Source: Amoebophrya sp. A120
Lineage: Eukaryota > Protista > Dinoflagellata
DNA length: 25,395 bases
Direction of reading: 5' to 3'
NCBI GenBank assembly: GCA_905178155.1
Contig: CAJINV010000044.1
Span: 21,502-46,896 of the forward strand
Position 1 is the first letter of the stretch. Every line of letters starts with the position of its first letter. A program made the position numbers and the translations under genes. The notes below the pieces were generated by a model. It saw only the letters and a program-made list of their open reading frames with translations. It had not been told where the DNA came from and ran no database searches. Positions 962 to 21,100 of the stretch are shown here, in pieces.

Positions 962-3900
962 AGCAGCCGGGTCGCCTCCATTCCCCCTTTTAACATTGGA
1001 AAAAGATGGCAGCCGGGTCGATTCCATTCCCCCTTTTAACATTGAAAAAAGACGGCAGCCGAGGCACGTCCGTTCCCCCTTTTAACATTGGAAAAAGACG
1101 GCAGCCGGGTGGCCTCCATTCCTCCTCCTAACATAGGAAAAAGATGGCAGCCCATTCACCTCCATTCCCCCTTTTAACATTGGAAAAAGATCGCGGGCGG
1201 ACCATGTCCGGATCACCTCCGTTCCCCCTTTTAACATAGGAAGAAGATGGCAGCCCGTTCACCTCCATTCCTCCTTTTAACTAACATGGGAAAAAGATGG
1301 CGGGCGGACCATGTCCGGATCACCTCCATTCCCCCTTTTACCATAGGAAGAAGATGGCAGCCGGGTCACCTCCATTCCTCCTCTTAACATTGGAAAAAGA
1401 TGAGAGCCGGCTCGCCTCCATTCCTCCTTTTAACATGGGAAAAAGATGGCGGGCGGACCGTGTCCGGATCACCTCCATTCCCCCTTCTAGCATAGGAAGA
1501 AGATGGCAGCCCGTTCGCCTCCATTCCTCCTTTTAACATTGGAAAAAGATGGCGGGCGGACCATGTCCGGATCACCTCCATTCCCCCTTTTAACATAGGA
1601 AGAAGATGGCAGCCCGCTCACCTCCATTCCTCCTTTTAACATTGGAAAAAGATGGCGGGCGGACCATGTCCGGATCACCTCCATTCCCCCTTTTACCATA
1701 GGAAGAAGATGGCAACCGGGCCACCTCCATTCCGCCTCTTAACATTGGAAAAAGATGAGAGCCGGCTCGCCTCCATTCCTCCTTTTAACATTGGAAAAGA
1801 TGGCGGGCGGACCATGTCCGGATCACCTCCATTCCCCCTTTTAACATAGGAAGAAGATGGCAGCCCGCTCGCCTCCATTCCTCCTTTTAACATTGGAAAA
1901 AGATGGCGGGCGGACCATGTCCGGATCACCTCCATTCCCCCTTTTAACATAGGAAGAAGATGGCAGCCCGCTCACCTCCATTCCTCCTTTTAACATTGGA
2001 AAAAGATGGCGGGCGGACCATGTCCGGATCACCTCCATTCCCCCTTTTACCATAGGAAGAAGATGGCAACCGGGCCACCTCCATTCCGCCTCTTAACATT
2101 GGAAAAAGATGAGAGCCGGCTCGCCTCCATTCCTCCTTTTAACATTGGAAAAAGATGGCGGGTGGACCATGTCCGGATCACCTCCATTCCCCCTTTTAAC
2201 ATAGGAAGAAGATGGCAGCCCGCTCACCTCCATTCCTCCTTTTAACATTGGAAAAAGATGGCGGGCGGACCATGTCCGGATCACCTCCATTCCCCCTTTT
2301 AACATAGGAAGAAGATGGCAGCCCGCTCACCTCCATTCCTCCTTTTAACATTGGAAAAAGATGGCGGGCGGACCATGTCCGGAGCACCTCCATTCCCCCT
2401 TTTACCATAGGAAGAAGATGGCAACCGGGCCACCTCCATTCCGCCTCTTAACATTGGAAAAAGATGAGAGCCGGCTCGCCTCCATTCCTCCTTTTAACAT
2501 TGGAAAAAGATGGCGGGCGGACCGTGTCCGGATCACCTCCATTCCCCCTTCTAGCATAGGAAGAAGATGGCAGCCCGTTCACCTCCATTCCTCCTTTTAA
2601 CATTGGAAAAAGATGGCGGGCGGACCATGTCCGGATCACCTCCATTCCCCCTTTTACCATAGGAAGAAGATGGCAACCGGGTCACCTCCATTCCTCCTCT
2701 TAACATTGGAAAAAGATGAGAGCCGGCTCGCCTCCATTCCTCCTTTTAACATTGGAAAAAGATGGCGGGCGGACCGTGTCCGGATCACCTCCATTCCCCC
2801 TTCTAGCATAGGAAGAAGATGGCAGCCCGTTCGCCTCCATTCCTCCTTCTAACATTGGAAAAAGATGGCGGGCGGACCATGTCCGGATCACCTCCATTCC
2901 CCCTTTTACCATAGGAAGAAGATGGCAGCCGGGTCACCTCCATTCCTCCTCTTAACATTGGAAAAAGATGAGAGCCGGCTCGCCTCCATTCCTCCTTTTA
3001 ACATGGGAAAAAGATGGCGGGCGGACCGTGTCCGGATCACCTCCATTCCCCCTTCTAGCATAGGAAGAAGATGGCAGCCCGTTCGCCTCCATTCCTCCTT
3101 CTAACATTGGAAAAAGATGGCGGGCGGACCATGTCCGGATCACCTCCATTCCCCCTTTTACCATAGGAAGAAGATGGCAGCCGGGTCACCTCCATTCCTC
3201 CTCTTAACATTGGAAAAAGATGAGAGCCGGCTCGCCTCCATTCCTCCTTTTAACATGGGAAAAAGATGGCGGGCGGACCGTGTCCGGATCACCTCCATTC
3301 CCCCTTCTAGCATAGGAAGAAGATGGCAGCCCGTTCGCCTCCATTCCTCCTTTTAACATTGGAACAAGATGGCGGGTGGACCATGTCCGGATCACCTCCA
3401 TTCCCCCTTTTAAAATAGGAAGAAGATGGCAACCGGGTCGCCTCCATTCCCCCTTTTAACATTGGAAAAAGATGGCAGCCGGGTCGATTCCATTCCCCCT
3501 TTGAACATTGAAAAAAGACGGCAGCCGAGGCACGTCCGTTCCCCCTTTTAACATTGGAAAAAGACGGCAGCCGGGTGACCTCCATTCCTCCTCCTAAGTA
3601 ACATAGGAAAAAGATGGCAGCCCGTTCACCTCCATTCCCCCTTTTAACATTGGAAAAAGATGGCGGGTGGACCGTGTCCGGATCACCTCCATTCCCCCTC
3701 TTAACATAGGAAGAAGATGGCAGCCCGTTCACCTCCATTCCTCCTTTTAACATTGGAAAAAGATGGCGGGCGGACCATGTCCGGATCACCTCCATTCCCC
3801 CTTTTACCATAGGAAGAAGATGGCAACCGGGTCACCTCCATTCCTCCTCTTAACATTGGAAAAAGATGAGAGCCGGCTCGCCTCCATTCCTCCTTTTAAC

Positions 3901-3992
3901 ATTGGAAAAAGACGGCAGCCGAGGGACGTCCATTCCCCCTTTTAACATTGGAAAAAGACGGCAACTGGGTGACCTCCATTCTCCCTTTTAAC
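962..3992. repeat. ~3-kb higher-order satellite of 46- and 57-bp monomers
   Basis: Core CCTCCATTCC(C/T)CCTTTTAACATTGGAAAAAGATGGC alternates with a few recurring linkers (GGGCGGACCATGTCCGGATCA, AGCCCGTTCA, AGCCGGGTCA and a GAGAGCCGGCTCG variant). Higher-order periods of 103, 252 and 354-355 bp are visible in the repeated ORF starts 1297/1652/2006/2361/2613/2865/3117. Confidence 0.95.
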
Positions 3993-4434: not shown

Positions 4435-5816
4435 ATGGCGCGCCAACGTGCGGAGGAGGCGCCAAACACTGCGGCGCGATTGCTGCTGATGTTGTTCGTC
4501 CTGCCCGCGGTGCTATTTGTCGAGGCGCTCTGCCTCTGCGGGGGCTACGTCCTAGGAATTTGGACGAAGCTCGCCGCCAAGCCCTGTGGCCAGTTCGTAC
4601 ACCCCAACAACGCCCGGAGAGACAGCTGCCTCTGGACAGCGGTGCGGCAGGCGACGGACCATGGCCCGGGGTTGCCACCGAGCCGGCTGCGCTGGCTCTG
4701 CGGCAAGCATGCGGGCCAGTGTGGTGACGTCGGGGACGTCGCCACACTGGCCCTCATCTTCGGCAGGCCGATCGCGATACATCTTCCCGACACCGCGTCG
4801 ACCGTCGTCGTTATGGAGCCAGGAATGAACGCGGCGGCCCTGGTGCCGCTGCTGTTGCACAACAAACACTACGAGGCGTTCCGTTCCCTCACCGCCCTGC
4901 TCGATTGCGCCGGCGGGCTAGCGGGCGCGGTCGTAATCGATCCGCGGAAAGTGGCGGCCCGGCTTCCCGCCTGGAAGGCCGCGGCGCTGCTCGGCGGTGC
5001 CACCGGGCCCGGCGCATCTCCAGGCCAGGCCTTCGCGCAGAAGGTGCGGGCACTGCTGCGGCGGTTCTTCAGCCGAAGCGCTAGCCAGGAGCAGCTCTAC
5101 TCCAGGGCGGACCTGGATGCCTTTGTGGCGGCGCAGGGCCTTCAGGATGAGGCGGAACGGGTCGAGGAGGTCCTCGGGAAGCTCATGGACTTGGGAACCA
5201 TCACCGACGTCGACGGCACCCACCTGGAATATCTCGGGGGACTCACCCCAGCGGCGGCACAACCGCGCACGCCGGCGCACAGCGTGGCCAACCAACGCAG
5301 CCCGTTCCCAAACAGCCGCCGCCGGCTTTTCCACGATGACGGTGATGCACCGGACTCGCCCAACACAATACCCAACCAGGCCGACAACTTGGAGCCGCAG
5401 CAGATGGTCGCGGCGCAGGTGGTCGCCGCCCCACCCCCTGCGAACCCCGGCCCAATTGTTCCCGCACCAGCGCGGGCCGGGGCGCACCACTTCGGCCCAG
5501 AAGGACTCAACATCCCCTCCATTCGTGGCGGGCTGGAGGATTGGGCGGGCCGCTTTCGTCAGGAGGTGGGCGAAACGGAGCCGGCCTACCTTGGTCGCGT
5601 CCTGGCCTCCTACGCGCGGGAAAAAGAGAACGAGGCCGGGGAGCAATACTCGACCTGCCACAGCGTCGCCCTGTTGTATTTGCTCGCCCGCCACCGTCTC
5701 ACCCTCGTCGACCAAAAGTGGCACATGTGGCAGCAGCATTGGCATGAATGTTGCGAGGCGGAGGCCTCCTCGTTGGTGCAGCGTCAGTTGGAGGGTATCG
5801 GGGCCAGTTCTCTGGC
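4435..5816 (+). CDS. Exon 1: OTU-like cysteine protease domain, winged-helix-like segment, start of D5 N-terminal domain
   Basis: DSCLWTAV (Cys codon 4627), CGDVGDVATLALIFGRPIAIH and LLLHNKHYEA (His codon 4867) follow the OTU pattern DGNCLFRA ... WG..E...L...F...I.V ... L.Y..NHY. LVDQKWHMWQQHW resembles the start of the D5_N domain. Confidence 0.75.
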
Positions 5817-7071
5817 TAAAAAGTGGCTAAATTTTTCGGGATTTTTTCAAGACCCCAGGGCGCAGGTGGCGCCGTGTGTGGTCTGGCGAGCCCTCCGCCT
5901 TTGGCAATGCTTTTCCGCTTCCCCCGCCTTGGCCGCTTCTTCCGGCCCAATTTGTTCCGGCGGGCCTTTGGGGCAGTTGGCCCGTGGCTTCTGCCGCCGC
6001 CGGGTTTTTTGCGTTTGGCCCCGGGCCGGGTTTTAAAATATAAAAATTTGCCCGGTTTTCTGTCGAAATGTGTCGCCTTGGGATTTTGGTCAAATTCCCG
6101 GTGCTGGTATGCCGGACATTTTTGCGCTCCGCAAAATATCTGGCCGCTTCGTCATGTGTGTGGTTGGTTGGGTTGTTATCTCGGGAAGAGCATGTTCGAG
6201 ATGGTGTGCGTCGCTATCTCGACCATGCCATCTGGTCTGGTTCTGTGAAAGGTGTTCGGCATTGCGCCCCGCGGGGCAAAATATTTGTAGTTCTGACAAC
6301 GTCGGCCTTCATCATGGGACTCTTGTTCTAACTCCGGCTTTGGAAATTTAGGAGTCGAGATGGCTTCTGTGTTTCCAAAGTCGCGGGATTCACGCTGTTT
6401 CATCTGCGAAGTCCGTGGCTAATTCGGCAAAGTGGGAACTTCCTTAGGGAAATCCCTGTGCTGCCGAATTTAGCCGTTCGGAGAGCAGATGAAAAAGGTG
6501 CGGATCCCGAAAAAGTTAGAACAAGGAGTAGAGGGTCGATTTAGAACATGATTTAGCCGGGCGATTTAGAACAAAAAATAGAAGCCGATTTAGAATAAGA
6601 TTTAGCGGGCTGATTTAGAACAATACTTAGCCGCCCGATTTAGAGCAAAATTTTGCCGCCCTCGGCTAAGTCGTTGATTTAGCCGCGGGTAGCAAAGCTT
6701 GAAGCTCGGTGTTGGGTCGATGGTGGGGCTGGCGCAAATTTTGAAACCCACGAACGGGGTGGGCGCTCACCCATATCCGGGCTCCGCCCGGAGTTTCATC
6801 GGGATCGGCTTCTGTTTGGGTCTGTCTTTCCTGGGGTAAGGGTTTGTTGTCCTCGTGGGTTTCCATGTTCTCTTGGCAAGTGGGCTTCGTATGTTTCCGT
6901 GCGTGTCTTGTCCGGGTTGTTGTGCAAAAGCCGCCTGCACCTCCTTGGGGCTTTTGTTTTCCCCCACCCGTTCCGATCGGGTGTTTCCTTTTCGTGTGAT
7001 AGCAGTTCCACCGGGCCCATTTTTCGCTTCGTGGACTTTTCAAAAATCCCGAAAAAATTAGCCACAATTTA
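5817..7071. mobile_element. 1.26-kb foldback insert / non-canonical intron 1 in the helicase gene
   Basis: Imperfect ~40-bp terminal inverted repeats: GCTAAAAAGTGGCTAAATTTTTCGGGATTTTTTCAA vs TTCAAAAATCCCGAAAAAATTAGCCACAATTTAGC. GC direct repeat at 5815-5816 and 7072-7073. Removing 1257 nt restores the frame. Internal hairpin centred at ~6445 and GATTTAG repeats at 6538-6680. Confidence 0.8.
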
Positions 7072-7073
7072 GC

Positions 7074-8319
7074 GGGCGAAATCGCCCCGCGTCCTCCAAC
7101 TGAGCAGCGCCTATGGTCGGACGTGCGGCAGGTAGCAGGCCTCGAGTCCCAATACCTCAAGCAGTTTGGCAAGCTTATGCGCAACAAGGTCGAGATGCTC
7201 CCGAAGAAATCCGAGGCGGCTTTCGTATCTCGCGCGGGGTTTGATCAGAATCCGCGGTGGTTTGCGTTGCGCAATTGCGTTTACGATGTTGCTGGCAGGG
7301 TCTTCACCAAATTAACGCCCGACCACATGGCCTGCCGTTTTGCCCCGATTGACATCCCGGAGCAGCTCATCGACAACCCAGACTGGGCCACGGCTTTGGA
7401 CGCAATGCAGAGAGCCGGGCGCGCGCCGTCTTTTGAAGGCGTGCAGGACTTCTTCTCCTCCCTCTTTGAGAAAGATGAACAAGAAGCAGCGCACCGCTAT
7501 GACAAGGGCCCCGACAGGGAGACGATGGAGCTGCTCCTCGACGCGCTTGCCGCATCAGTTACGGGAGTCCCCCTGCATCGGTTCAGCTACCTCTTCAGCC
7601 CCCGGGGAAGACAGGGGAAGGGCTTGCTGCGGAAACTCGTGCGCGCGGCCTTCGGGCGCTATTTCACACAGGTGAAGCCGCAAGTCTTCTGCACCGACAA
7701 GCGCGGGGTGGATGAGCACAGCGCATTCTTTTACGCATCGCTCGGGGCGCGGCTCATGTGGATGGATGAGGTCTCGGATACGCAGTGTTGGGACATTACT
7801 CGCTTCTGCAATTATGTGTCCGCGGACACATTGCCAGCGCGGCAGATCAAGTCCGCGGCAATGCGCGAAATCGATCCGACCTGGCAATGGTTTGGGACTG
7901 GGAACGTTGCCCCGCGATTCTTGAAACCAGTCACCCAGCCCGACAAGACTCGCTTCCAGACGTTCTACTTCCCGATCCGGTTCCTCCAGGCCGGAGAGCG
8001 GCAGACCTCCCCAAGAAGCCGGCCGGCAAGTCAAGCGATCGACGAGGAGGTCGAGCGCTTGGCGCCTTCGTTTATGCTCTTCCTCCTGCACCGCCACGCC
8101 ACGCGGGACGTAGCCGAGAACGCGAAGGGCGCGAAGGAGGCCGGCCAACGTTGGCACCCGGAATTCTTCCCGAACATCGTGGGGGACTGGGCCGCGGAGT
8201 GGGTTAGCCCGGTCACCGTCGAGATGTTTGGCGCCCCTGTGAAACTCGGCGAAGCCACGCGAATCGGCCCGGCCGATTTGTACGCGAAGCGCGCAGAGTT
8301 CGTCGCCACTTCCGACCGC
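7074..8319 (+). CDS. Exon 2: D5-like (poxvirus D5 / P4-family) superfamily 3 helicase
   Basis: D5_N motif NPRWFALRNCVYDVAGRVFTKLTPDH. Walker A-like SPRGRQGKG (7597-7623), Walker B GARLMWMDE, motif C GTGNVAP, arginine-finger region DKTRF. The frame is open upstream of the called 7123 start, back to the insert boundary. Confidence 0.9.
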
Positions 8320-9374
8320 TCAGGCAGACAGGCCCGGGCGACCTAATAAGTTTAATCGGACTCTAAAAAATTGCTAATTTGCAAACCCCCCGAAGCCAGA
8401 AACTATGCCCGGAGGCACAGCAGAAAGAAGCCTGCCAGCAAGGACGAATGAGGAAGCGAAGACCTGCTCTTTAACGCCATTCAGATAACAAAGCAAGACA
8501 ACTACCGGACGCCGGCCCTCGCGAACAAATGCGACGACCCAAGCGCCCGGCCACGGTAGCCCAACCATGTCCGCCCGGAAACCAACCTCGGAGAAAACCC
8601 TGCTAATTTGTCTGCTAATTTTACCCCCCCGACCCCCTTGCGGGAGTCTGCTAAACGCCACAGACAATTCCAAGAAAGCCCCTGCTAATTGGGTCTTTAA
8701 TTGGGTGCTAATTTTTTTTGGTGTCTGCTAATACGTCTGCTAATTTGTCTGCTAATTGAGCCCCCCCCCGGATGCGAATGCGTCTGCTAATTTGTCTGCA
8801 AAGCCAAAAACCAATGCGATTTCCCTGTTGTTCAAAACTGCTCGAACAACAGGGAAATCCCATTGGATTTCTTTGCTTTGCGCAATTAGCGCTTGGTTAG
8901 CAGACCCAAAACACAACGCCCGAACCAATTAGCTTACTATTAGGAGTGGGGTTAGCAGACCCCTTCCCGAAAAGGCCCAAAATTTTAGCTGACTATTAGA
9001 AGTGCAAGTTAGCAACTGCGTTCTGGGCACTTTTCTGAAAATTCATGACCCGATTAGCGGACTAATTTAGCGGACTCCGGAAGCCTACCTCATCAAAGGC
9101 CGGAATGTCCCAACCGGACCCCACAGAGACAAACCGGCAGGCCCGTGCCACAAAATACACGCACGACGGGCGACATACCCGCCGTCCGGCAGGCCAACGA
9201 AAATGCGGCCCACCCATCAAAGCTGAAAACCCAGAGAAGAGCCGGCCGCGCGACTGCGTCGGGCCTTGAAAACACGGAAAGCCCGAAAGCCTGCCGGGGC
9301 CCGGGCGCCGGTTCAATTTAGCAAATTTTTAGGCTGCAATTAGGGCGGGAATTCGCCCGGGCCTGTCTGCCTGA
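8320..9374. mobile_element. 1.06-kb foldback insert / non-canonical intron 2 with 22-bp perfect TIR and GACCGC direct repeat
   Basis: TCAGGCAGACAGGCCCGGGCGA (8320-8341) is the exact reverse complement of 9353-9374. GACCGC at 8314-8319 and 9375-9380. Central hairpin at 8812-8865. GTCTGCTAA repeats on the left arm, TTAGCAGAC on the right. Removal fuses the helicase ORF to the 9390-9863 ORF. Confidence 0.9.
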
Positions 9375-9380
9375 GACCGC

Positions 9381-10306
9381 TATCGGTTTGTGGCGTATGA
9401 CCTTAAGCCATTCGAGGCCAGCCCGAACCTCTTCCGCGAGGCTTGTGAGCAGGAATTCGGAAAAAAGACACAAAAGAGGGGCGCAGCCGTTCCGGGCCGT
9501 GCTTACACTCTTCCCGGCCGCCTTCTTTCCCGGGACGAGCAGGGCCCCAACGCAGACGAGGCGGAGGACATAAGCATGTCCCCCGGTGCGGAGGATGCGG
9601 CGGCAGCAGCGCAGCGCCAGAAAGACGAGGAACTCATCAACTTTCTGCATGGCGGCGCCCCCCCACAGGAGTGTGGGCCCCTCGCCACCGTCTGCATTAA
9701 GTGCGGCTGCGCACTTACCGGCGCCACTGCCCGAGCCACCGCGCAAGTTCTCCAATCCAATCTGACGACGTGCGACGCCATCCACGTCGGGAAGCGCTGC
9801 TGCTCTAAGTTGTGCGGCGCATGGCACCGCTGCGGCTACGTTGTAAACAACGGGAAACATTAGAACACCTGGGAAACGGTGGACGAGCTGAAGGCGCGCG
9901 GGGTCTTCTTCCTGACGACGACCCTGGGGATTGCCGTCGACCAGGTCGAACTTTTTCGGGGCCGCGTGCTCCGGTCCCGGACTACGGGAACGAATGGCAG
10001 AAGCCTGGCGCGCAGGTCTCCGCACCAAGCTTGCCACCAGCCGCGTCACGGAGTACCTCTGGACAGCCTATTGCGCCTACGAGCTTCTCGCGCTGCGCTG
10101 GACGGGCTTCGTCGTGGCGCCGATGCCTGTCATGCTGAACGCCTTCGCCCTCAATGACATCAAGACCACCCCCATCGGTGCGGAGGACGAGCTGGCGCAG
10201 ATGGAAACGGCTGCCATCGATGGCAATCAAAAAGTGAACCGCGTCAAGGAAGCCGGGGAAGCCTGCCCGTATTCCGCGGCCGCGCGCCCGCGCGGGCGCC
10301 CGAAAG
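9381..10306 (+). CDS. Exon 3: rest of helicase C-terminal winged helix, CxC-type cysteine cluster, first catalytic region of KDZ transposase (disrupted)
   Basis: DLYAKRAEF..SPNLFREACEQEFGKKTQKR..RAYTL fits the D5 C-terminal wHTH pattern. CIKCGCAL..KRCCSKLCGAWHRCGYVVNNG fits KDZ-associated CxC5-like clusters. AAIDGNQKVNR (Asp codon 10219) fits the KDZ DGN motif. Contains TAG at 9861 and a frameshift near 9990. Confidence 0.7.
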
Positions 10307-10421
10307 GTTTGCAGAGCCTTGCGCTTTTTATTTTAGCTGTTTGGCCGCGCAAGTTTAATTTCTTTGGGTTTTGTGTGTTCCGTCTTATTGAAACGCAGCA
10401 CCGCACTGACTGACCACACAG
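10307..10421 (+). other. Canonical 115-nt GT-AG intron
   Basis: AAG|GTTTGC donor, T-rich body, CTGACTGAC branch-like motif at 10406-10414, CACAG|G acceptor. Splicing yields the AT-hook-like peptide PRGRPKGSPNKK. Confidence 0.7.
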
Positions 10422-11006
10422 GCTCGCCAAACAAAAAGCCGGCACGCAGCAAAGCCGGCAGCCGTTCCGCAAACGTGCGCCAAAAAAGACAAGACCAAGC
10501 CCAAGACGTTCAAGAACCGGACGGGCGGGCTCCTCGTGGTATCGAACGAAAAGACGGGCGCCATTGTCGCCGTGGAGGAGCTACTGGCAGCCGAAACGAC
10601 ACAGCAGAAGGCGGCCTGGGTGGTTTCCCATGTGGAAAAGCATGGCGCGCAGTTGAAGACCGTGCTCCATGACGACGCCTGCCATCTGGCGCCGTTCATC
10701 GAGAAACACCACCCCGGGAAAGTCCCCTCCGTCAAATTCCTGATCGACAAATGGCACACCCGAAACCACAAGTGCGGCGACAAGTACAAAATCAAGGGGG
10801 TGAACAAGCGGCGCTGTATGGAGAAGGGCATCCGCAACACGTCAGTGGCGGAGCAGGCGAGCAGCTGGCTAAGCGGCTACCGCAAATCCCTGACGAACAT
10901 GAAGGGGAAGAGTTTCAACTTTGTGCTGCGGTCCCTGGTGCGGAGGTTCAACGGGCTCAAAACGAAGGACCGCCAGGGGCTTTTCCGCCCGGTTGGGAAG
11001 AAATGA
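10422..11006 (+). CDS. Exon 4: KDZ (Kyakuja-Dileera-Zisupton) transposase catalytic core
   Basis: RTGGLLVV..TGAIVAVEEL..AET, VLHDDACHL (10671), FLIDKWHTRNHKC (10746) and NTSVAEQASSWL..YRKSLTNM..FNFVL (Glu codon 10851) match the KDZ YDxxC / DxFHxxxH / NTxxxEQxxxW signature. Confidence 0.85.
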   Translation, partial: ARQTKSRHAAKPAAVPQTCAKKDKTKPKTFKNRTGGLLVVSNEKTGAIVAVEELLAAETTQQKAAWVVSHVEKHGAQLKTVLHDDACHLAPFIEKHHPGKVPSVKFLIDKWHTRNHKCGDKYKIKGVNKRRCMEKGIRNTSVAEQASSWLSGYRKSLTNMKGKSFNFVLRSLVRRFNGLKTKDRQGLFRPVGKK

Positions 11007-11727: not shown

Positions 11728-12624
11728 TGTATCGGCCCTGTCTGCTTGCCCGTTGTTTCTTCGTTCGCGTCTTGTATTTCTTGTCTACGTGATTCAGAAA
11801 GTTATTTTGAATCTTTGAGATCAGATCGCTCTCGCTCCAAGAAGTTGTTTTTACCGAAGCTCGAGATCTTCGCTCCTGGCTACTCGACCGACTTCAGACC
11901 AGACAAGAGCAGCACAAAGAGATCGCACCTGGAGCGATAGTGCGCCTCGCTGGATGAGAAAAAAAAAAAAAGAGAAAAAAAAAAGGAAAAGATCGCAAAA
12001 CAAAAGTTAAAAAAAAAAAAGACGAAAGCTTACGCCAAGAGACGTAAAGCAGCGACATTCAGACTAGCTAGGATGGTTGACCGCAGCAAAGTGTGAAAAG
12101 CTTCGCGCTGATCACGGCGCTCGGTGGCGATTTATGTGTCCGCTTCTTTGCCTCGCGCGGAAGAAGTGGCTGGGCATTAGCTTGGGGTGTGTTTTCCTCT
12201 TCGACGCCGAGGGAAGATGGCTTTTGGCAGAGCTTAGCCTTTTGCCCTTGACCCTCGATGGTTTGATTGGTGGCTAGGGATTGCTCCTAATCTCTTGAAC
12301 ACTAAGGGCGGACAGGTGGTAGCCCTGGTGGACACTAAACGATTGCTCGCGCGCAGCTAAAACGGGCCGCGTTCGGACGTGGGTGATGCGGCTGGCGACC
12401 GACCCAGTGCAGGCAATTTACCTAGAGGAAAACACACAGCACGTGATCAGTTCCTGGCTCGCCAGATAGTTAGAAGACTATCGAAGAAGCTTGTGCTCGC
12501 CTTGTATTTCTTGTCTAGCAGACACAACACGAAGCAGAAACATGCCACCTACAGGCGGCAGAGGCAGAATCCTGTAAAACGCGCGCGCGCGCGTCAAACA
12601 AAACACACGGCCCCGGTCATTTCC

Positions 12625-12850
12625 GAAGTCGGCGAAGCTGGTGAAGCTGATGAATTTGCTAAATTTCAGAAATCCGAGAAAGCTGGCGAAGCTGGTGAAG
12701 CTGATGAATTTGCCAAATTTCGCAAATCCGAGAAAGTTGACGAAGCTGGTGAAGCTGATGAATTTGCCAAATTTCGCAAATCCGAGAAAGTTGGCGAAGC
12801 TGGTGAAGCTGGTGAAGCTGATGAATTTGGCAAATCCGGGAAAACTTGCA
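12625..12850. repeat. Right subterminal 54-bp tandem array (about 4 copies), reverse complement of the 1-290 array
   Basis: GAAGCTGGTGAAGCTG at 12634, 12688, 12742 and 12796. Bracketed by GTAAAAC(GC)n at 12574-12593 and 12872-12889. Confidence 0.95.
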
Positions 12851-14261
12851 AAAAAACCCAAGCCGAAGCCGGTAAAACGCGCGCGCGCGTGCGCGGTAGA
12901 TCCTGCCCGACTCCCAGCAATTTTCTCTGGTTGTTTCTTTTTTTTTTGCTCTTTTGCTTTTCAAAAAAAAAAAGTCAACTTTTCAAGTTGAATCAGGTCG
13001 GTTTAGAACAAAAGTCGCAAAATTTCACTTTTTCCCGCATGCTATGACCAACCCCACCGGCCGGGTCACTCTCTATTTTTTTCCTCATACAACCGTACCT
13101 CCGGGTGTTGTGCTGTTGCCTTTTCTCCTCCTCCTCCGCGTGAGGTCACGCTGCTGTCCCCTTCCAGTATCCCGCGAAAAAGCGTCCCCACCTCGTAGTT
13201 GTCATGCAAATCTGCATGCGTAAAATGTTTCTCATGCGGAGCCCCATGCGAGTCATTTTCTAGTCGTTTTTTGGAATTTGTGACGCTTCGATCGGCAAAG
13301 ACGTATAATTTTCCAAAACCTCCTCTGGAACTAGAACCAACAACTTGTACTCGCCCCGTTAAAAATAGCCGTTAAGGTCGTGGTCTGGAGTGGTGCTCGT
13401 GATCTGCATGATACTTTTTCCGCCGAAGTGCCTCCTTCTGGGAGTAACACTACTTACTCTGGTGAGAAGAATGGGTCCAACGAATCCAACTCGACCACTG
13501 TGGAGGTGCATCTTCAGGTACCTGTATACGTAAGTACTGCTTCACCAGCGTAAACCTCCGACTGATAATTTTTTTTCTGTCGTCGCGGCCTACAATTTCC
13601 GGAAGCCAATATCTAGAAGTCCTGCGCTGATAAGTAGATACTAGTACTGTTGCGTATAAAATCACAACCTTTCGTCAACTTCCGAGTGCATTTTTGCAGA
13701 AGCGGGCAAACCCTTGATCTAGTCCTCGTTGTGCAATATATGTGCAAGAAAAAGCCGTCTGTCTATAAATTTGTTGCGAGACAAATGAGAGAAAAGTGGG
13801 ACATGTCTAAAACAGTCATGATGTTTTTAGAGGTTGCGTTTATTTCGTTCTATGAAATTATATCGTTCGTCCGATCTTCTCTATGCGTGCATTAAGAATC
13901 ATAAAAACTGCGGTTCTTGAAGATCTCTCTTTGCGATTGCGCAGACTACTTCTCTATAACTCTTCTATTCCTGCTTGCGTATCAACAAATTGCAGAGATA
14001 ATTCCATAGATGTTGTGTCGCTGATGTTTCGTTTGTATTCCTAATTGTAACATCTCCATGAACTACCCCTTTCCTGGTGGACCCGCAGGAGCTGGGGCAT
14101 CTTCAAAACGAAAGTTTTATGACTTATGCTCTTTACACAATTTGAAAAGTACAGCAGGTGCGTCTGACTCTACTGAAAAAGAGCTGCTAAAAGAACCCGT
14201 GTAGAGGATGCACTTCTTCATCCGTAGAATCCTCGTCCGCCTCTTTGTATCGTACGAAAAA

Positions 14262-14445
14262 AGTGTTTCACTGTAGGAATTTTGCAAGTTTTGCATCACA
14301 AGTTTGTTCCACATGAGAGAGAAAATTTGCCATGCGAGATTCCCAAGGGAAAACACAGCTAGAAATCAAAAGCCTTGGGTGTGTAGCAAGACAAATAGGG
14401 TTGTGTTTCATTCACGACTGCATCACAAGTTCACAGTGAAACACT
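14262..14445. mobile_element. Introner/MITE-like element family A, copy 1
   Basis: Perfect 13-bp IR AGTGTTTCACTGT / ACAGTGAAACACT. The body is colinear with 16533-16706. Confidence 0.8.
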
Positions 14446-14773
14446 ACTTTTTCCTTGCATATACTGCTGCCCGAGTCTACTCTTTCCACCTCGCCCCAAA
14501 GGTATAACTTGGCGAAGGGAAAGAAGTGCAGTATTCTCATTGACGCAAACTTGTCATGCAGTGTCACTGCGAGCCGGAACTACTTCTTGTCTCGTCGGAA
14601 TAAATACAACACGGTGAGTGGACTGACTTGTCATACTTATATATGAAGTGAGTCGAACAAAATGTGTCAACATCTACTTACTTAATAACGGTCGTGAAAC
14701 CTCCACTGCACTTTTTTCCCCTTTGGATAACAGAAAATGTCCCGGCTGGCCCTGGATCAGTCTCGCTATGCAC

Positions 14774-14909
14774 TGCAAAACTATCGCACTCGTAGTATTG
14801 CAATAGAAATTAGCTCAGCATCGCAAATGGAATTTGTCATGCTGATTTATCTTAACATGTAGATTTGTAAATGCATAATTGCGATTACTACGAGTACGAT
14901 ACTTTTGCA
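14774..14909. mobile_element. Introner-like element family B, copy 1 (136 bp)
   Basis: 24-bp IR with 2 mismatches: TGCAAAACTATCGCACTCGTAGTA / TACTACGAGTACGATACTTTTGCA. TGCA at both ends. Confidence 0.8.
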
Positions 14910-17900
14910 CAGGATACTCGCGTGAGGCGTACTATTTCCGCCCGCGCTCGGAGAGGAGGTCGTGTTAATGTCTTGATCCATCTCCGCTTCATCCCCTTTC
15001 GCATCTGGCAAATAAAGCGAGGACTTTCTTTGCTCGTCGTGGTGGTCCTCCCATGGTTCCGCACACAGTAGTTTTTCCACGGCGAGGACTCGGGTGTACT
15101 TCTCGGATGTTGTATCATCGTCCTGCCGCAAAAGAGCTCGTCCGCTAAACCCTGGACTACTACAAGACGAGAGCTGCATGCAGTGGTCCACGCAAGCAGA
15201 CCCAGGAGCACTGTCAGGCGGCGGATATCAAAATGAAAAATCCCCCCTCCCCATATCAAAACGGAAATCTTCTGTGATGCTGATTTGTGGCCGCAAAGGC
15301 AAATCAGCTTTGTCATGCTAGAAGGGAAATAAAGCATGCGGACTGTAGTTCTGGGCGACGTGGGAACAAGACCTTGCATCTTCAGCATGACAGGAGGCAG
15401 CTGGAAGTGGGAAACTGCATGACAAATTGCCTGCAAACGAGGCCACAACTGCGGCTCTTGGCCTTCTAGCAAAGCGATTTGTGTACTCAAATACAGCATC
15501 ACAAATTTCGTTTTCGGGAGGGGGGATTTTTCCTTTTGATAGCGGAGACGGGGAAAGCATTCGTGCCGCCCGGCCAGTTGCAAGAACATCATGATCCGGA
15601 TGTTGAGCAGCAGAAGAATTATCTGGTGGTGCACACGCCCAGAGGACATCATGATCTACGTCTTCTCCCGTGGTAGTATAGCAAAAATTCTCCTCCTCCC
15701 GGCTGGTAGCGCCGGCAGTAGTTTCGGTGGATTGCTGACGGGAAAAATCGCAAAGTTGTGCCAGCTGTTGTGCCTGTTTGACCCCCTCCACGGTGCGGCC
15801 CTGCTGTAGCGATCGTGCTAGGACGCTGTGCTGGTCCTCGTGCTTCTTCATCATTTGTAAGCACTGGCGCAAATAAAACGGCGAGCAGTTCTTGTTTTCA
15901 TCGTGCTGCACTGATGCACGCACGACCGGCGCAGGAGCTTCGAGCTTGTCGGCTTCATCATTTTTTGGCTTCACGGCCGACGACCCTGCTGTACCAATCA
16001 TTTCTAGCTTCAGCTGCTGTAAATTCTCGGTGATGTCCGCTAATCGGTCCTCCCGAAACTCCTTTTTCAGCCTCCGCCGCACTTTCTTCATCTTCGCAAC
16101 CCAAGATTTCGACAGCTCGAGATGTTATCCCAGCATGTGCAAAGCGGTATCGTAGTCGTTGTATCAATTGCACGCATGCATGACAAATCTTCTTACCAAT
16201 CAGCGAAATCAGCATTGCAAGTTCAACCTTTGATGCGGAGAAAATCAAAATTTGTCGTGCAATTCACTTACAAGTACGATACTTTTGATGCAATGCATAG
16301 GTTCAACGCTGCGCTGGTGCACGGAGACACAGAGGAGGCACTAGTCCCTCCGCTGCTGCTGTTATTTTTCCTATTAAGAACCCAGGCCACCAAATCCGCG
16401 ATATTTTCATCGGTCGCGGTGCTGGGACGGCTCGGACCCGGTTCGAGACCTTGTGACAGGACAGAAGTTTTTTTATCAGCACAAGAAACAAACCCGTTTT
16501 TCGTACTGCACACGGCCGCATTATCGTAGTGCTTCACTGTACGGATTTTGCAAGTTCTGCATCACAAGTTTGTTCTACATAACAGAGAGAATTTGCCATG
16601 CGAGATTCCTAAGGGAAAACACAGCTAAAAATCCATTGCCTTGCATGTGTAGCAAGAAAAATACTTCTCAGAAGATGCATTTTCTGCATTACAAGTTTAC
16701 AGTGAAACAATTTTTTCTTGCGATACGCATCAAGGGAGAGCGGCAGGTCGAAGCAGCCGTGGGCGGCGAAATGTTCTTCTTGCAGGTAGTTTTGTTGAAC
16801 TACCCCAGTGCCGCGAGATGAACCACTTCTTCTCCTCTCTACGTATGTATGCATTGCAAAAGTATCTTACTAGTAGGAATTGCATTACAAATTTTCTCAG
16901 AAACAAACATGGAATTCGTTATGCTGATTCAGCTACTAAAGTAGATTTGTCATGCGAGGCTGCAACTACTACGGGTACGATAGTTTTGCAGTGCATAGTA
17001 TGCGGGCTCGCCCGATTGCAGCGAAACGGGGTGATTCATTTTGTAGTGCTGCATGGACCGCCAGATGGGGAGGAAGGGCACGCCCACAGACTTGACTTTT
17101 CGTTGCTTGGTCGCGTATCACAAATGGAATAGTTACCGATCTGGTGTTCTGGAAAATGATTTTTGCCAGACTTCTGTCATGCAGGTTTATTTTCATGTTG
17201 GCCCATGATGTCTGGCATAGCATGACAGATTCATCCGGGACTCGAGATCTTTCTCTTCATCATGCCTCTTTTGCATGAGAATCTGCCTCGCAACTTTGCA
17301 AAAGGCGGGACGACTTTGTTTCACGCAACACGAATCACGCAACACAAATCTTTGTACGAAGCAGGCTAACCACGACACGTTGCAGTGTTCCAGAGAGGAC
17401 AAGTCGAGATGGATTATATGTGCAATGCATATTGCGTTCACCTGGTCTTTTTCCCTCCTCTGCTCCGTTGTGAAGCCTTTAAAGTTCTCCTCGTGGCAGT
17501 CTTTTGCAGCAAGAACTCTCAGACGTAGCTCCTCCGCGTCGACGTCCTCTGCTGTGTTGATGTCACTAGTAGTATCCTGCGCAGCTAGTACTTCGGCACC
17601 GTCGGTTTCCTGTGCAGGTTGCGGCCGGGCTTTTCCTTTTTTACACGTAGTAGTACAACTAGCTCCCGCACATGCACTGGCAGTAGTAGACATCAGCACC
17701 TGTTCTTTCAATTCCCCGTGCAGGCGCAACTCCGCCTGTCGCAGCAGCGCGGCTCGTTCCCTCGCGATTTCCCGACGTAAAAAATGGCTGATAGGACTAT
17801 AGCGCCGTATTTTGCCCCGGGATTTAACTTTTTTGGGCTTTGCGAGAGTTGTGATGGTAGTGTCCGTGTTGTCGTCCTTTGTGTAGGTCTGGTCCAGCAG

Positions 17901-18303: not shown

Positions 18304-18366
18304 TACAACATGATAATCTGTGAGCAATATTATGCCATAATATTGCTCACAGATTATCATGTTGTA
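18304..18366. repeat. Perfect 63-bp palindrome (31-bp arms, 1-nt centre)
   Basis: TACAACATGATAATCTGTGAGCAATATTATG-C-CATAATATTGCTCACAGATTATCATGTTGTA. Confidence 0.95.
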
Positions 18367-19013: not shown

Positions 19014-19570
19014 NNNNNNNNNNNNNNNNNNNNNNNNNNNNNNNNNNNNNNNNNNNNNNNNNNNNNNNNNNNNNNNNNNNNNNNNNNNNNNNNNNNNNNN
19101 NNNNNNNNNNNNNNNNNNNNNNNNNNNNNNNNNNNNNNNNNNNNNNNNNNNNNNNNNNNNNNNNNNNNNNNNNNNNNNNNNNNNNNNNNNNNNNNNNNNN
19201 NNNNNNNNNNNNNNNNNNNNNNNNNNNNNNNNNNNNNNNNNNNNNNNNNNNNNNNNNNNNNNNNNNNNNNNNNNNNNNNNNNNNNNNNNNNNNNNNNNNN
19301 NNNNNNNNNNNNNNNNNNNNNNNNNNNNNNNNNNNNNNNNNNNNNNNNNNNNNNNNNNNNNNNNNNNNNNNNNNNNNNNNNNNNNNNNNNNNNNNNNNNN
19401 NNNNNNNNNNNNNNNNNNNNNNNNNNNNNNNNNNNNNNNNNNNNNNNNNNNNNNNNNNNNNNNNNNNNNNNNNNNNNNNNNNNNNNNNNNNNNNNNNNNN
19501 NNNNNNNNNNNNNNNNNNNNNNNNNNNNNNNNNNNNNNNNNNNNNNNNNNNNNNNNNNNNNNNNNNNNNN
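19014..19570. other. Assembly gap (557 N)
   Basis: Run of N. Confidence 1.
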
Positions 19571-20061
19571 GCGCAGCCGAGCGAAAGGCTGCGCCTCCCC
19601 TCTTATCTGCCCCGGCCTGGCTTGGGCCTGATTCGGAAACAACGCCCGCCGCATCTTCTGCGCAGCTTCCCAAACCCCTAGCGGTTCAGGACTTGGCGCG
19701 CGCCCAGTAAAATGAGGACAGGCGGCGTAGGCTGGGAAACCCGGAAAAGCCAACTGGAATGGGAGGTCTAGGTAGAATAGGGAGGCGCGCACAGACCACA
19801 GCTGTCCGAGAAGCCAAAGGGGTCGAGAGATCTGGGAGACCTGAGGAGCGAGCAACCCCTGACGAGGTGGCTCGTGCTTCATGGCGCAACCTTTTCAAAT
19901 GTGGACACGGCTGAAGCGGGGAAATATACCTCGGGGCGCATCTTTTCAAATCTGAAAACCAACAGGCGAAAAAGTTGCTGTGCTCTCCTGTGGTTCTTGA
20001 GATTTGAAAAGATGCCCTTTCAGCATTTTTTCAAATCTGAAGCGCGTGGCCTTTGGCCTGC

Positions 20062-20187
20062 AAAATTTGAAAAGATGCTGAAGGAGACATCTTTTCAAAA
20101 TTTGACAACCTCAACAACGCAAGCACTTGCTTTGTTGAGGTTGTCAAATTTTGAAAAGATGTTTCCTTCAGCATCTTTTCAAAATTT
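20062..20187. repeat. 126-bp near-perfect palindrome within a CTTTTCAAA / TTTGAAAAG repeat cluster (19890-20200)
   Basis: TTTGAAAAGATGCTGAAGGAGACATCTTTTCAAAATTTGACAACCTCAACAA mirrored about 20124/20125. Each arm is itself a smaller hairpin. Confidence 0.9.
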
Positions 20188-21100
20188 GACAACCTTTTTG
20201 ACAACCCCTTTGATGAGGTCTCCCAAGGGGCGGTGAGAGTGCGGCCGAGGGAACGTCTACAAGTGCTGCTGTCCTTGTTACGGACTTCTTCGATCAGCCC
20301 CTCCGACACCAGCATGATTTTTCCAGTCTGCTCCATCTTCGGTGAGGATAAGTACAGATCGCGGGGAAAATCGAAATTTTTGTGCACCTGGTGCACTTAT
20401 GCTTATGTTATCCCTATAAAGAAAAATATCTATCAGGAGGTTATGAAAATAAGTGCCGGCGAAGAATTAAGGAGTCTTCGAATTTAATGGTGGCACAGAA
20501 AAAAAAAAAGATTTTGACAAGGCGATTGATAAACGAACCCACAAATGAAAGGGGTAAAAGACCAGTTACAACGATCTTCGGAGCGTAGGATGTAAATCGG
20601 ACTGGAAGCAGCACATCACAATTCGGTTCTGAAAACCATCCAGTGCATGCTTGAATTATTGTTGATGCCCTTAAGAGGTGCCTGAAGATGTAGTACAGTA
20701 GATATCCTAAAAGAAGAAGTGGCAGCTCAGAACCGGAAAAAGTCTGTAACAGTCCTGCGAGGATTTCTATCAGAATCAAAGTCTTATGTCGTGTTTGCTC
20801 AGCGTCCTTGAAGCGACAAGGACTCAGAAACTCTAGTCCGAAAAAAATTTGTCATCATTCTACTCGCCATGCAGATGAAACCGCTGCACTACTGCGGGCG
20901 CGCCTGTCCACTTTGGGGAGCTGGAATTATTACGTACAAAACAACCGCAACTATCAGCCTGGTGCCAGTTATGTTGTGTCTTCATTCAAACTTCAGAGCG
21001 TATATTAAAGTTTGAAGGTTGTGGGTCTCATCATTGTTACTCTATGCAAGAGAGATTCGACTTCAATAGCAATATTAGCTGTTCTATGCAATACACCCTG

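Follow-up and report, generated by a model that had tools for sequence, protein, structure and literature searches.

Does one gene join a KDZ transposase to a replicative helicase?

The locus analysed here raises the question of whether a eukaryotic DNA transposon encodes, in one gene, a transposase of the KDZ (Kyakuja-Dileera-Zisupton) type, a replicative helicase of viral type and a protease. It lies in Amoebophrya sp. A120 (assembly GCA_905178155.1, contig CAJINV010000044.1, positions 21,502 to 46,896 of the forward strand); the whole stretch of 25,395 nucleotides that was analysed is referred to as the window, and all coordinates are window positions. DDE enzymes cut and join the ends of an element and eukaryotic DDE transposons are viewed as cut-and-paste elements; Polintons, the main self-synthesizing group, have since been recognised as viruses. 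DNA viruses and self-replicating elements use D5-like enzymes as replicative ring helicases, usually together with a primase or a polymerase. A preliminary description of the window had read one broken gene as a fusion of an OTU protease, a D5-like superfamily 3 (SF3) helicase and a KDZ transposase. The sequence comparisons presented below indicate that the window holds a real, if decayed, KDZ transposon with a D5-type helicase fused to its transposase, and we consider it highly probable that the helicase-KDZ fusion itself is genuine. In the reading that we favour, to which we assign a probability of roughly 0.55, this was a KDZ transposon, now broken, that measured at least about 13 kb and whose helicase likely unwinds the element so that its movement amounts to copying.

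A single reading frame interrupted by two inserts

The gene is read from the plus strand throughout. Its first coding block (4435-5783) begins with an ATG and covers an OTU-like protease, a low-complexity linker and the start of the D5_N domain, with a GC content at third codon positions (GC3) of 0.78-0.83. D5_N is then interrupted by a non-coding insert of 1,320 bp (insert 1, 5784-7103), which has TCAG..CTGA ends, a terminal inverted repeat (TIR) of 63 nt with an 81% match and an exact duplication of GCAGCG at 5778-5783 and 7104-7109. The second coding block (7110-8319) holds the remainder of D5_N, the SF3 AAA+ core and the start of a winged helix, and it is followed by a second non-coding insert of 1,055 bp (insert 2, 8320-9374), likewise ending in TCAG..CTGA, with a terminal inverted match of 23 nt at 100% and an exact duplication of GACCGC at 8314-8319 and 9375-9380. 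Removal of both inserts from 4435-9860 leaves 1,013 codons with zero stops from the ATG to the CxC cluster, which agrees with the earlier claim that two TIR-bounded inserts break one frame. The stretch is also stop-free (1,017 codons) when both 6-bp duplications are retained.

Both inserts have a lower GC content (0.53) and lack frame bias; the ORFs (open reading frames) scanned there gave no Pfam match. Their TCAG..CTGA ends and 6-bp duplications are the only features that the two have in common. Splicing of insert 1 at canonical GT-AG sites at its ends was rejected, as it would shift the frame. The inserts suggest either that a further transposon family is active in the host or that they can be spliced; they appear to be two non-autonomous inverted-repeat elements that landed in the helicase later. 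The predicted ancestral product would be a single protein of about 1,345 residues, comprising an OTU-like protease, a D5-type SF3 helicase and a CxC5-KDZ transposase.

The OTU-like and helicase domains

The OTU-like domain (4558-4926, plus strand) has its Cys codon at 4627 and its His codon at 4867. The ESM Atlas supports this assignment at 0.90 (PF02338 in 20 of 30 matches; recognition 3078), and Pfam and PDB searches with the OTU piece returned zero matches. The OTU part of the preliminary description is thus tentative, with support from the Atlas and the Cys and His motifs but not from Pfam or PDB. Between this domain and the helicase, positions 5020-5250 encode a compact helical segment that by eye resembles a second winged helix; it has no significant Pfam match.

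The identity of the helicase as a D5-type SF3 enzyme, which had also been claimed, is well supported by sequence matches. D5_N is detected at E 7.7e-5, which passes the Pfam cut-off, and the helicase matches TIGR01613 (E 9.4e-9) and PHROG 1156 (E 1.6e-9) and is assigned by the Atlas to D5 helicases at 0.97. By eye, we take GRQGKG (7606) to be Walker A, MWMDE (7756) Walker B, GTGN (7894) motif C and DKTRF (7942) the Arg finger. An AlphaFold model of the helicase was unusable (predicted local distance difference test, pLDDT, 33), and PDB sequence searches were uninformative. A search with the helicase for longer proteins came back empty, and a near-length search returned one protein, P0151 (numbers of this kind are our handles for proteins), which is the closest helicase relative and the only close one (41% identity over 69% of the query). 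A scan of JGI metagenomes with the window helicase yielded no helicase-related locus, scans for related loci yielded nothing in IMG/VR viral contigs (five scans) or in GTDB genomes, and tblastn against phages gave zero matches.

The CxC-KDZ transposase and its breaks

After insert 2, the helicase frame continues through a bridge (9381-9860, plus strand) that encodes a putative winged-helix tail, an acidic linker and a CxC5-like cysteine cluster (9693-9839). An in-frame TAG (9861-9863) follows within the conserved CxC region. The N-terminal part of the transposase (9864-10306) has a frameshift near 9987-9993 and carries the first catalytic motif, DGN, at 10219; a 143-nt GT-AG intron with an in-frame acceptor (10307-10449) separates it from the KDZ core (10450-11006), in which RTGG (10518), HDDACH (10668), DKWH (10746) and NTSVAEQ (10836) precede the stop at 11006. 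The catalytic motifs sit where the preliminary description had placed them.

That description had also counted one stop and two frameshifts. The TAG and the frameshift near 9987-9993 are real in the present assembly, but the second frameshift is probably unneeded, because acceptor 10449 preserves both the frame and the motif spacing of relatives: the distance from DG to RTxG becomes 52 residues, against 48-53 in eight of the nine clade members checked. An alternative acceptor at 10421, which sits closer to a branch-point-like CTGAC, would give a spacing of about 61 residues and a frameshift. Two explanations that would remove the TAG were rejected. A 24-nt GT-AG intron excising it would fall where relatives carry residues, and reassignment of the stop codon is contradicted by four host ORFs (235-644 codons, with 91 CAA/CAG Gln codons) that are open under the standard code. 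With its two inserts, its stop and its frameshift, the window copy has probably lost activity; the alternative would be that splicing removes the inserts and that the assembly is wrong at the stop and the frameshift.

Against the Pfam KDZ profile the window core scores E 0.003, under the Pfam cut-off, and Pfam CxC5 detects relatives but not the window piece. With the window core, 206 relatives were found at E<=0.001 (best E 5.6e-15). Pfam KDZ (E<=0.001) is present in 24 of the 54 relatives scanned and CxC4/5/6 in 6 more, 30 of 54 combined. The D, D, DxxH and E motifs of KDZ are conserved, and the window motifs align with those of relatives. The CxC region (9666-9986) matches relatives as well, with a best tblastn E of 2e-8 against the window. 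A profile of 70 relatives spans the CxC-to-KDZ region across its breaks, although the core part of this match is obtained by construction, because it was the core of the window that had been used to find these relatives. Two side observations concern the same relatives. A chromodomain occurs in 7 of the 54 scanned, and in P0042 (418 residues) a P-loop nucleoside triphosphatase (NTPase; Pfam AAA_22, E 2e-4) leads into the C-terminal half of KDZ, which represents either another NTPase-KDZ junction or a gene-calling chimera.

Evidence for the fusion in the window and in relatives

Within the window, the evidence for fusion is moderate. In 9381-9860 the helicase frame holds the CxC cluster without any stop, against 3 and 5 stops in the two remaining frames. 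By composition, an open bridge of 100 codons has a chance of about 6%, and the correct frame is 1 in 3, for a joint chance of about 2%. GC3 is 0.71-0.85 across all eight coding pieces, in comparison with 0.52-0.60 in four long host ORFs, and no transposon end was seen between the helicase and the CxC cluster.

Comparison with relatives provides what we judge to be the stronger evidence. P0128 is an intact natural ORF of 1,579 residues, intron-free, on contig L001 (a cluster of 5 from JGI, NCBI and ENA), and its domain order is D5/P4-type helicase, TV-Pol/PolA-like polymerase, papain-like protease and CxC5-KDZ. Its helicase matches TIGR01613 at E 2.1e-5. The model of its middle domain (pLDDT 67) resembles the replication protein of Zamilon virophage (Foldseek E 3.1e-10) and family A polymerases (Z up to 9.5), and the Josephin/papain-like fold is a weak match (E about 0.01, Z 5.6). 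Judged from this model, P0128 would encode a polymerase of its own, the property by which self-synthesizing transposons are recognised. A second protein, P0089, combines a PolA-like domain (profile E 1.8e-19) with KDZ. A FastTree phylogeny of 48 sequences, built from the 47 of 150 KDZ matches that have sufficient upstream sequence, places the window transposase, P0128 and P0089 in one group of 19 members with support of 0.98; in a tree of the C-terminal core alone (137 of the 150 matches kept), the position of the window is unresolved. The PolA-like polymerase of the same-group relatives retains both acidic motifs and lies between helicase and transposase. The claimed helicase-KDZ fusion therefore recurs, intact, in a protein whose transposase belongs to the group of the window enzyme.

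Four further helicase-polymerase proteins were found. Three end before any transposase; the fourth, P0165 (2,605 residues, on an ENA contig of 8.6 kb), has the helicase-PolA-protease module of P0128 and, at its C-terminus, a DDE-like region missed by the KDZ profile (E 0.35), and the replication module may thus also pair with a second, non-KDZ transposase family. Near the N-terminus of P0165 an OTU-like motif can be seen by eye, as can a PolA-like motif, missed by the profile, where P0056 begins. On contig L002, head-to-head arrays of 8-bp units (285-490) form a 200-bp hairpin directly upstream of a helicase-PolA gene that belongs to the P0128 family. The named eukaryotic relatives of the transposase come from dinoflagellates only (Prorocentrum cordatum and Symbiodinium natans).

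Flanking arrays and surroundings

Inverted arrays of 54-bp units enclose the gene about 12.8 kb apart. The left subterminal array (1-340, at least 5.3 copies) is cut by the window start, beyond which the left end lies, and the right array (12563-12844) has 4 copies. The left array matches 12628-12844 over 217 nt at 82%, and the inner borders of both arrays align. The putative element so delimited also includes direct repeats of 34 and 168 bp (346-960), whose ORFs have no Pfam match, and a 3-kb satellite of 46/57-bp units (963-3992), a candidate binding array or origin. Between the arrays, a Pfam scan of 18 further frames found no other recognizable gene, and no long unexplained ORF is present; the same frames gave no match to a capsid or packaging ATPase, although Pfam is weak for such capsids. 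We read the region as a single element, 12.8 kb or longer, that carries subterminal repeats; the window shows neither its outermost ends nor a target duplication.

Host-like DNA of differing codon bias starts past about 13,100. Several short repeated inverted-repeat elements and palindromes lie there (14247-16998, 18304-18366 and 19938-20264) between long Ser/Gln-rich minus-strand ORFs, and these resemble introner-type repeats. An assembly gap of 557 N occupies 19014-19570, and no Rfam family was found in the window.

How the element might move, and what else could explain the locus

In the favoured reading, the KDZ DDE domain, with the zinc cluster as guide, would bind the subterminal arrays, nick the ends of the element and join them to the target. 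The helicase ring would load onto the element, with the internal satellite or the end arrays serving as origin, and open the DNA, and the 3' ends so exposed would be extended. The window copy has neither primase nor polymerase, and therefore an outside polymerase would be needed, as the copy could not synthesize itself alone; host polymerases or, in trans, polymerase-bearing relatives might supply the synthesis. The protease might either separate helicase from transposase or strip ubiquitin.

A number of observations weigh against this proposal. The element is known here from one copy and from genomic sequence alone. A polymerase or primase is undetectable in the window, whose six frames give no match to the PolA profile of the relatives, and there is no room for such a domain between those present. 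Walker A is a GKG variant with Lys-Gly in place of Lys-Ser/Thr, and for this reason ATPase activity of the helicase is not assured. The frame stays open past insert 2, but for the winged helix of the earlier claim the match to the tail of P0151 is marginal (score 28, reached by 238 of 5,000 shuffles; control frame 27), and GC3 of 9381-9530 is 0.60, no higher than in other frames. P0151 itself stops after the winged helix, without CxC or KDZ. A helicase shares the ORF in only 1 of the 150 KDZ matches, of which only 4 have at least 450 residues upstream of the core, and the polymerase profile is matched by 2 of the 150. Several proteins of the 19-member group look like stand-alone transposases of 425-500 residues, and the window branch is long and, with midpoint rooting, basal in that group. 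Because the helicases of the window and P0128 are only remotely alike (BLASTP E 0.008, hhalign probability 0.3%), the two fusions may be of separate origin. The helicase-KDZ architecture could have evolved repeatedly, or one helicase could have replaced another.

Some of these observations would fit a real fusion in an ordinary cut-and-paste element, in which the helicase is captured cargo for target opening, end processing or gap repair. We regard this as a good deal less probable than the favoured reading, although the lack of a polymerase or primase in the window copy and the stand-alone transposases of the same group both speak for it. Extra genes are frequent in KDZ elements (PMC12477816), and DDE lineages with a helicase exist, such roles having been proposed for the RecQ-bearing KolobokH and for AcademH. 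The helicase, however, is of the replicative D5/P4 type, and same-group relatives keep between helicase and transposase a PolA-like polymerase with both acidic motifs. If instead a KDZ transposon had landed directly 3' of an unrelated OTU-helicase gene, perhaps a viral remnant, its frame would agree by luck. The end of P0151 after the winged helix, the weak coding signal in the bridge and the failure of protein and related-locus searches to find a close full-length relative would suit such chance nesting. It is nevertheless unlikely, because the intact P0128 has the helicase-to-KDZ order and a transposase that groups with that of the window; the joint chance of about 2% for frame and open bridge, the absence of transposon ends between helicase and CxC and the uniform GC3 argue against it as well.

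The remaining explanation is that the locus derives from a Polinton-like virus or a virophage whose integrase was KDZ and whose capsid genes have been lost. Such viruses typically have D5/TV-Pol replicases and long inverted ends, and a size of about 13 kb would be suitable. We give this explanation little credence, since neither a capsid or packaging ATPase gene nor any other gene could be recognised in the 18 further frames, five scans of IMG/VR returned zero relatives and the intron is of spliceosomal type. In these viruses, moreover, PolA replicases accompany tyrosine recombinases and not DDE enzymes, according to bioRxiv 10.64898/2026.10.13.758929.

At a broader level, we tentatively propose, with slightly less than an even chance of being right, a group of eukaryotic DNA transposons, as yet undescribed, that lack capsids and copy themselves and that appear to be centred on dinoflagellate-like hosts. 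In this group a virophage-type module (D5 helicase, with or without TV-Pol) would be combined with a protease and a DDE transposase in one polyprotein, and the window would represent a helicase-only branch. If true, one gene with a viral replicative helicase and KDZ, joined in relatives by a PolA-type polymerase, would make a compact capsid-less replicative transposon and would link virophage replicases with cut-and-paste elements. In the intact P0128, helicase, polymerase and integration activity are directly testable within one protein of 1,579 residues.

Comparison with known systems

In described KDZ elements of the CxC5 type the KDZ DDE domain comes after a CxC cluster, as it does in the window element; the window adds a D5/SF3 helicase and an OTU-like domain in the same frame. 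KDZ elements have target-site duplications of 7-8 bp and ends of a defined type, either TIRs or, in Kyakuja, CA..TG. Ulp1, SAP and SWIM domains are reportedly also found as KDZ cargo. TET/JBP cargo is described in PMC12730594, and the KDZ elements of Ectocarpus resemble the window in being large, with nested insertions and transposases that are often pseudogenized (PMC12477816). No D5/SF3-KDZ fusion was found in full-text searches of the literature, although the unexamined supplementary element tables of these two papers, as well as Repbase and Dfam, could hold one. The wider set of replicase-fused DDE elements is apparently undescribed. A new transposon class, as the preliminary description had suggested, is too strong a term for now, because KolobokH (RecQ; PMC9587614) and AcademH (PMC10045372) are DDE transposons that encode a helicase. 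In contrast to these, in the window the helicase is a replicative SF3 ring enzyme and precedes a KDZ transposase.

The two inserts share terminal inverted repeats and short direct repeats at their borders with the introners, a kind of non-canonical intron, of Amoebophrya. The introners, however, have inverted repeats of 8-20 nt and direct repeats of 3-5 nt (PMC7789003), and the inserts are 1.0-1.3 kb long with inverted repeats of 23-63 nt and direct repeats of 6 nt.

The TV-Pol/D5 replicases of virophages (Sputnik V13 and Zamilon), Polinton-like viruses and bacterial TV-Pol elements share the D5-like helicase with the window and the PolA-fold polymerase with P0128, and elements with TV-Pol and D5 have been proposed as replicative transposons (PMC2579912). 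Unlike in the viral systems, no capsid gene was seen here, and the window copy is without a polymerase. In the TV-Pol/D5 replicases the polymerase is on the N-terminal side of the helicase, and a separate gene encodes the integrase, whereas here the helicase comes first and the transposase is fused to it.

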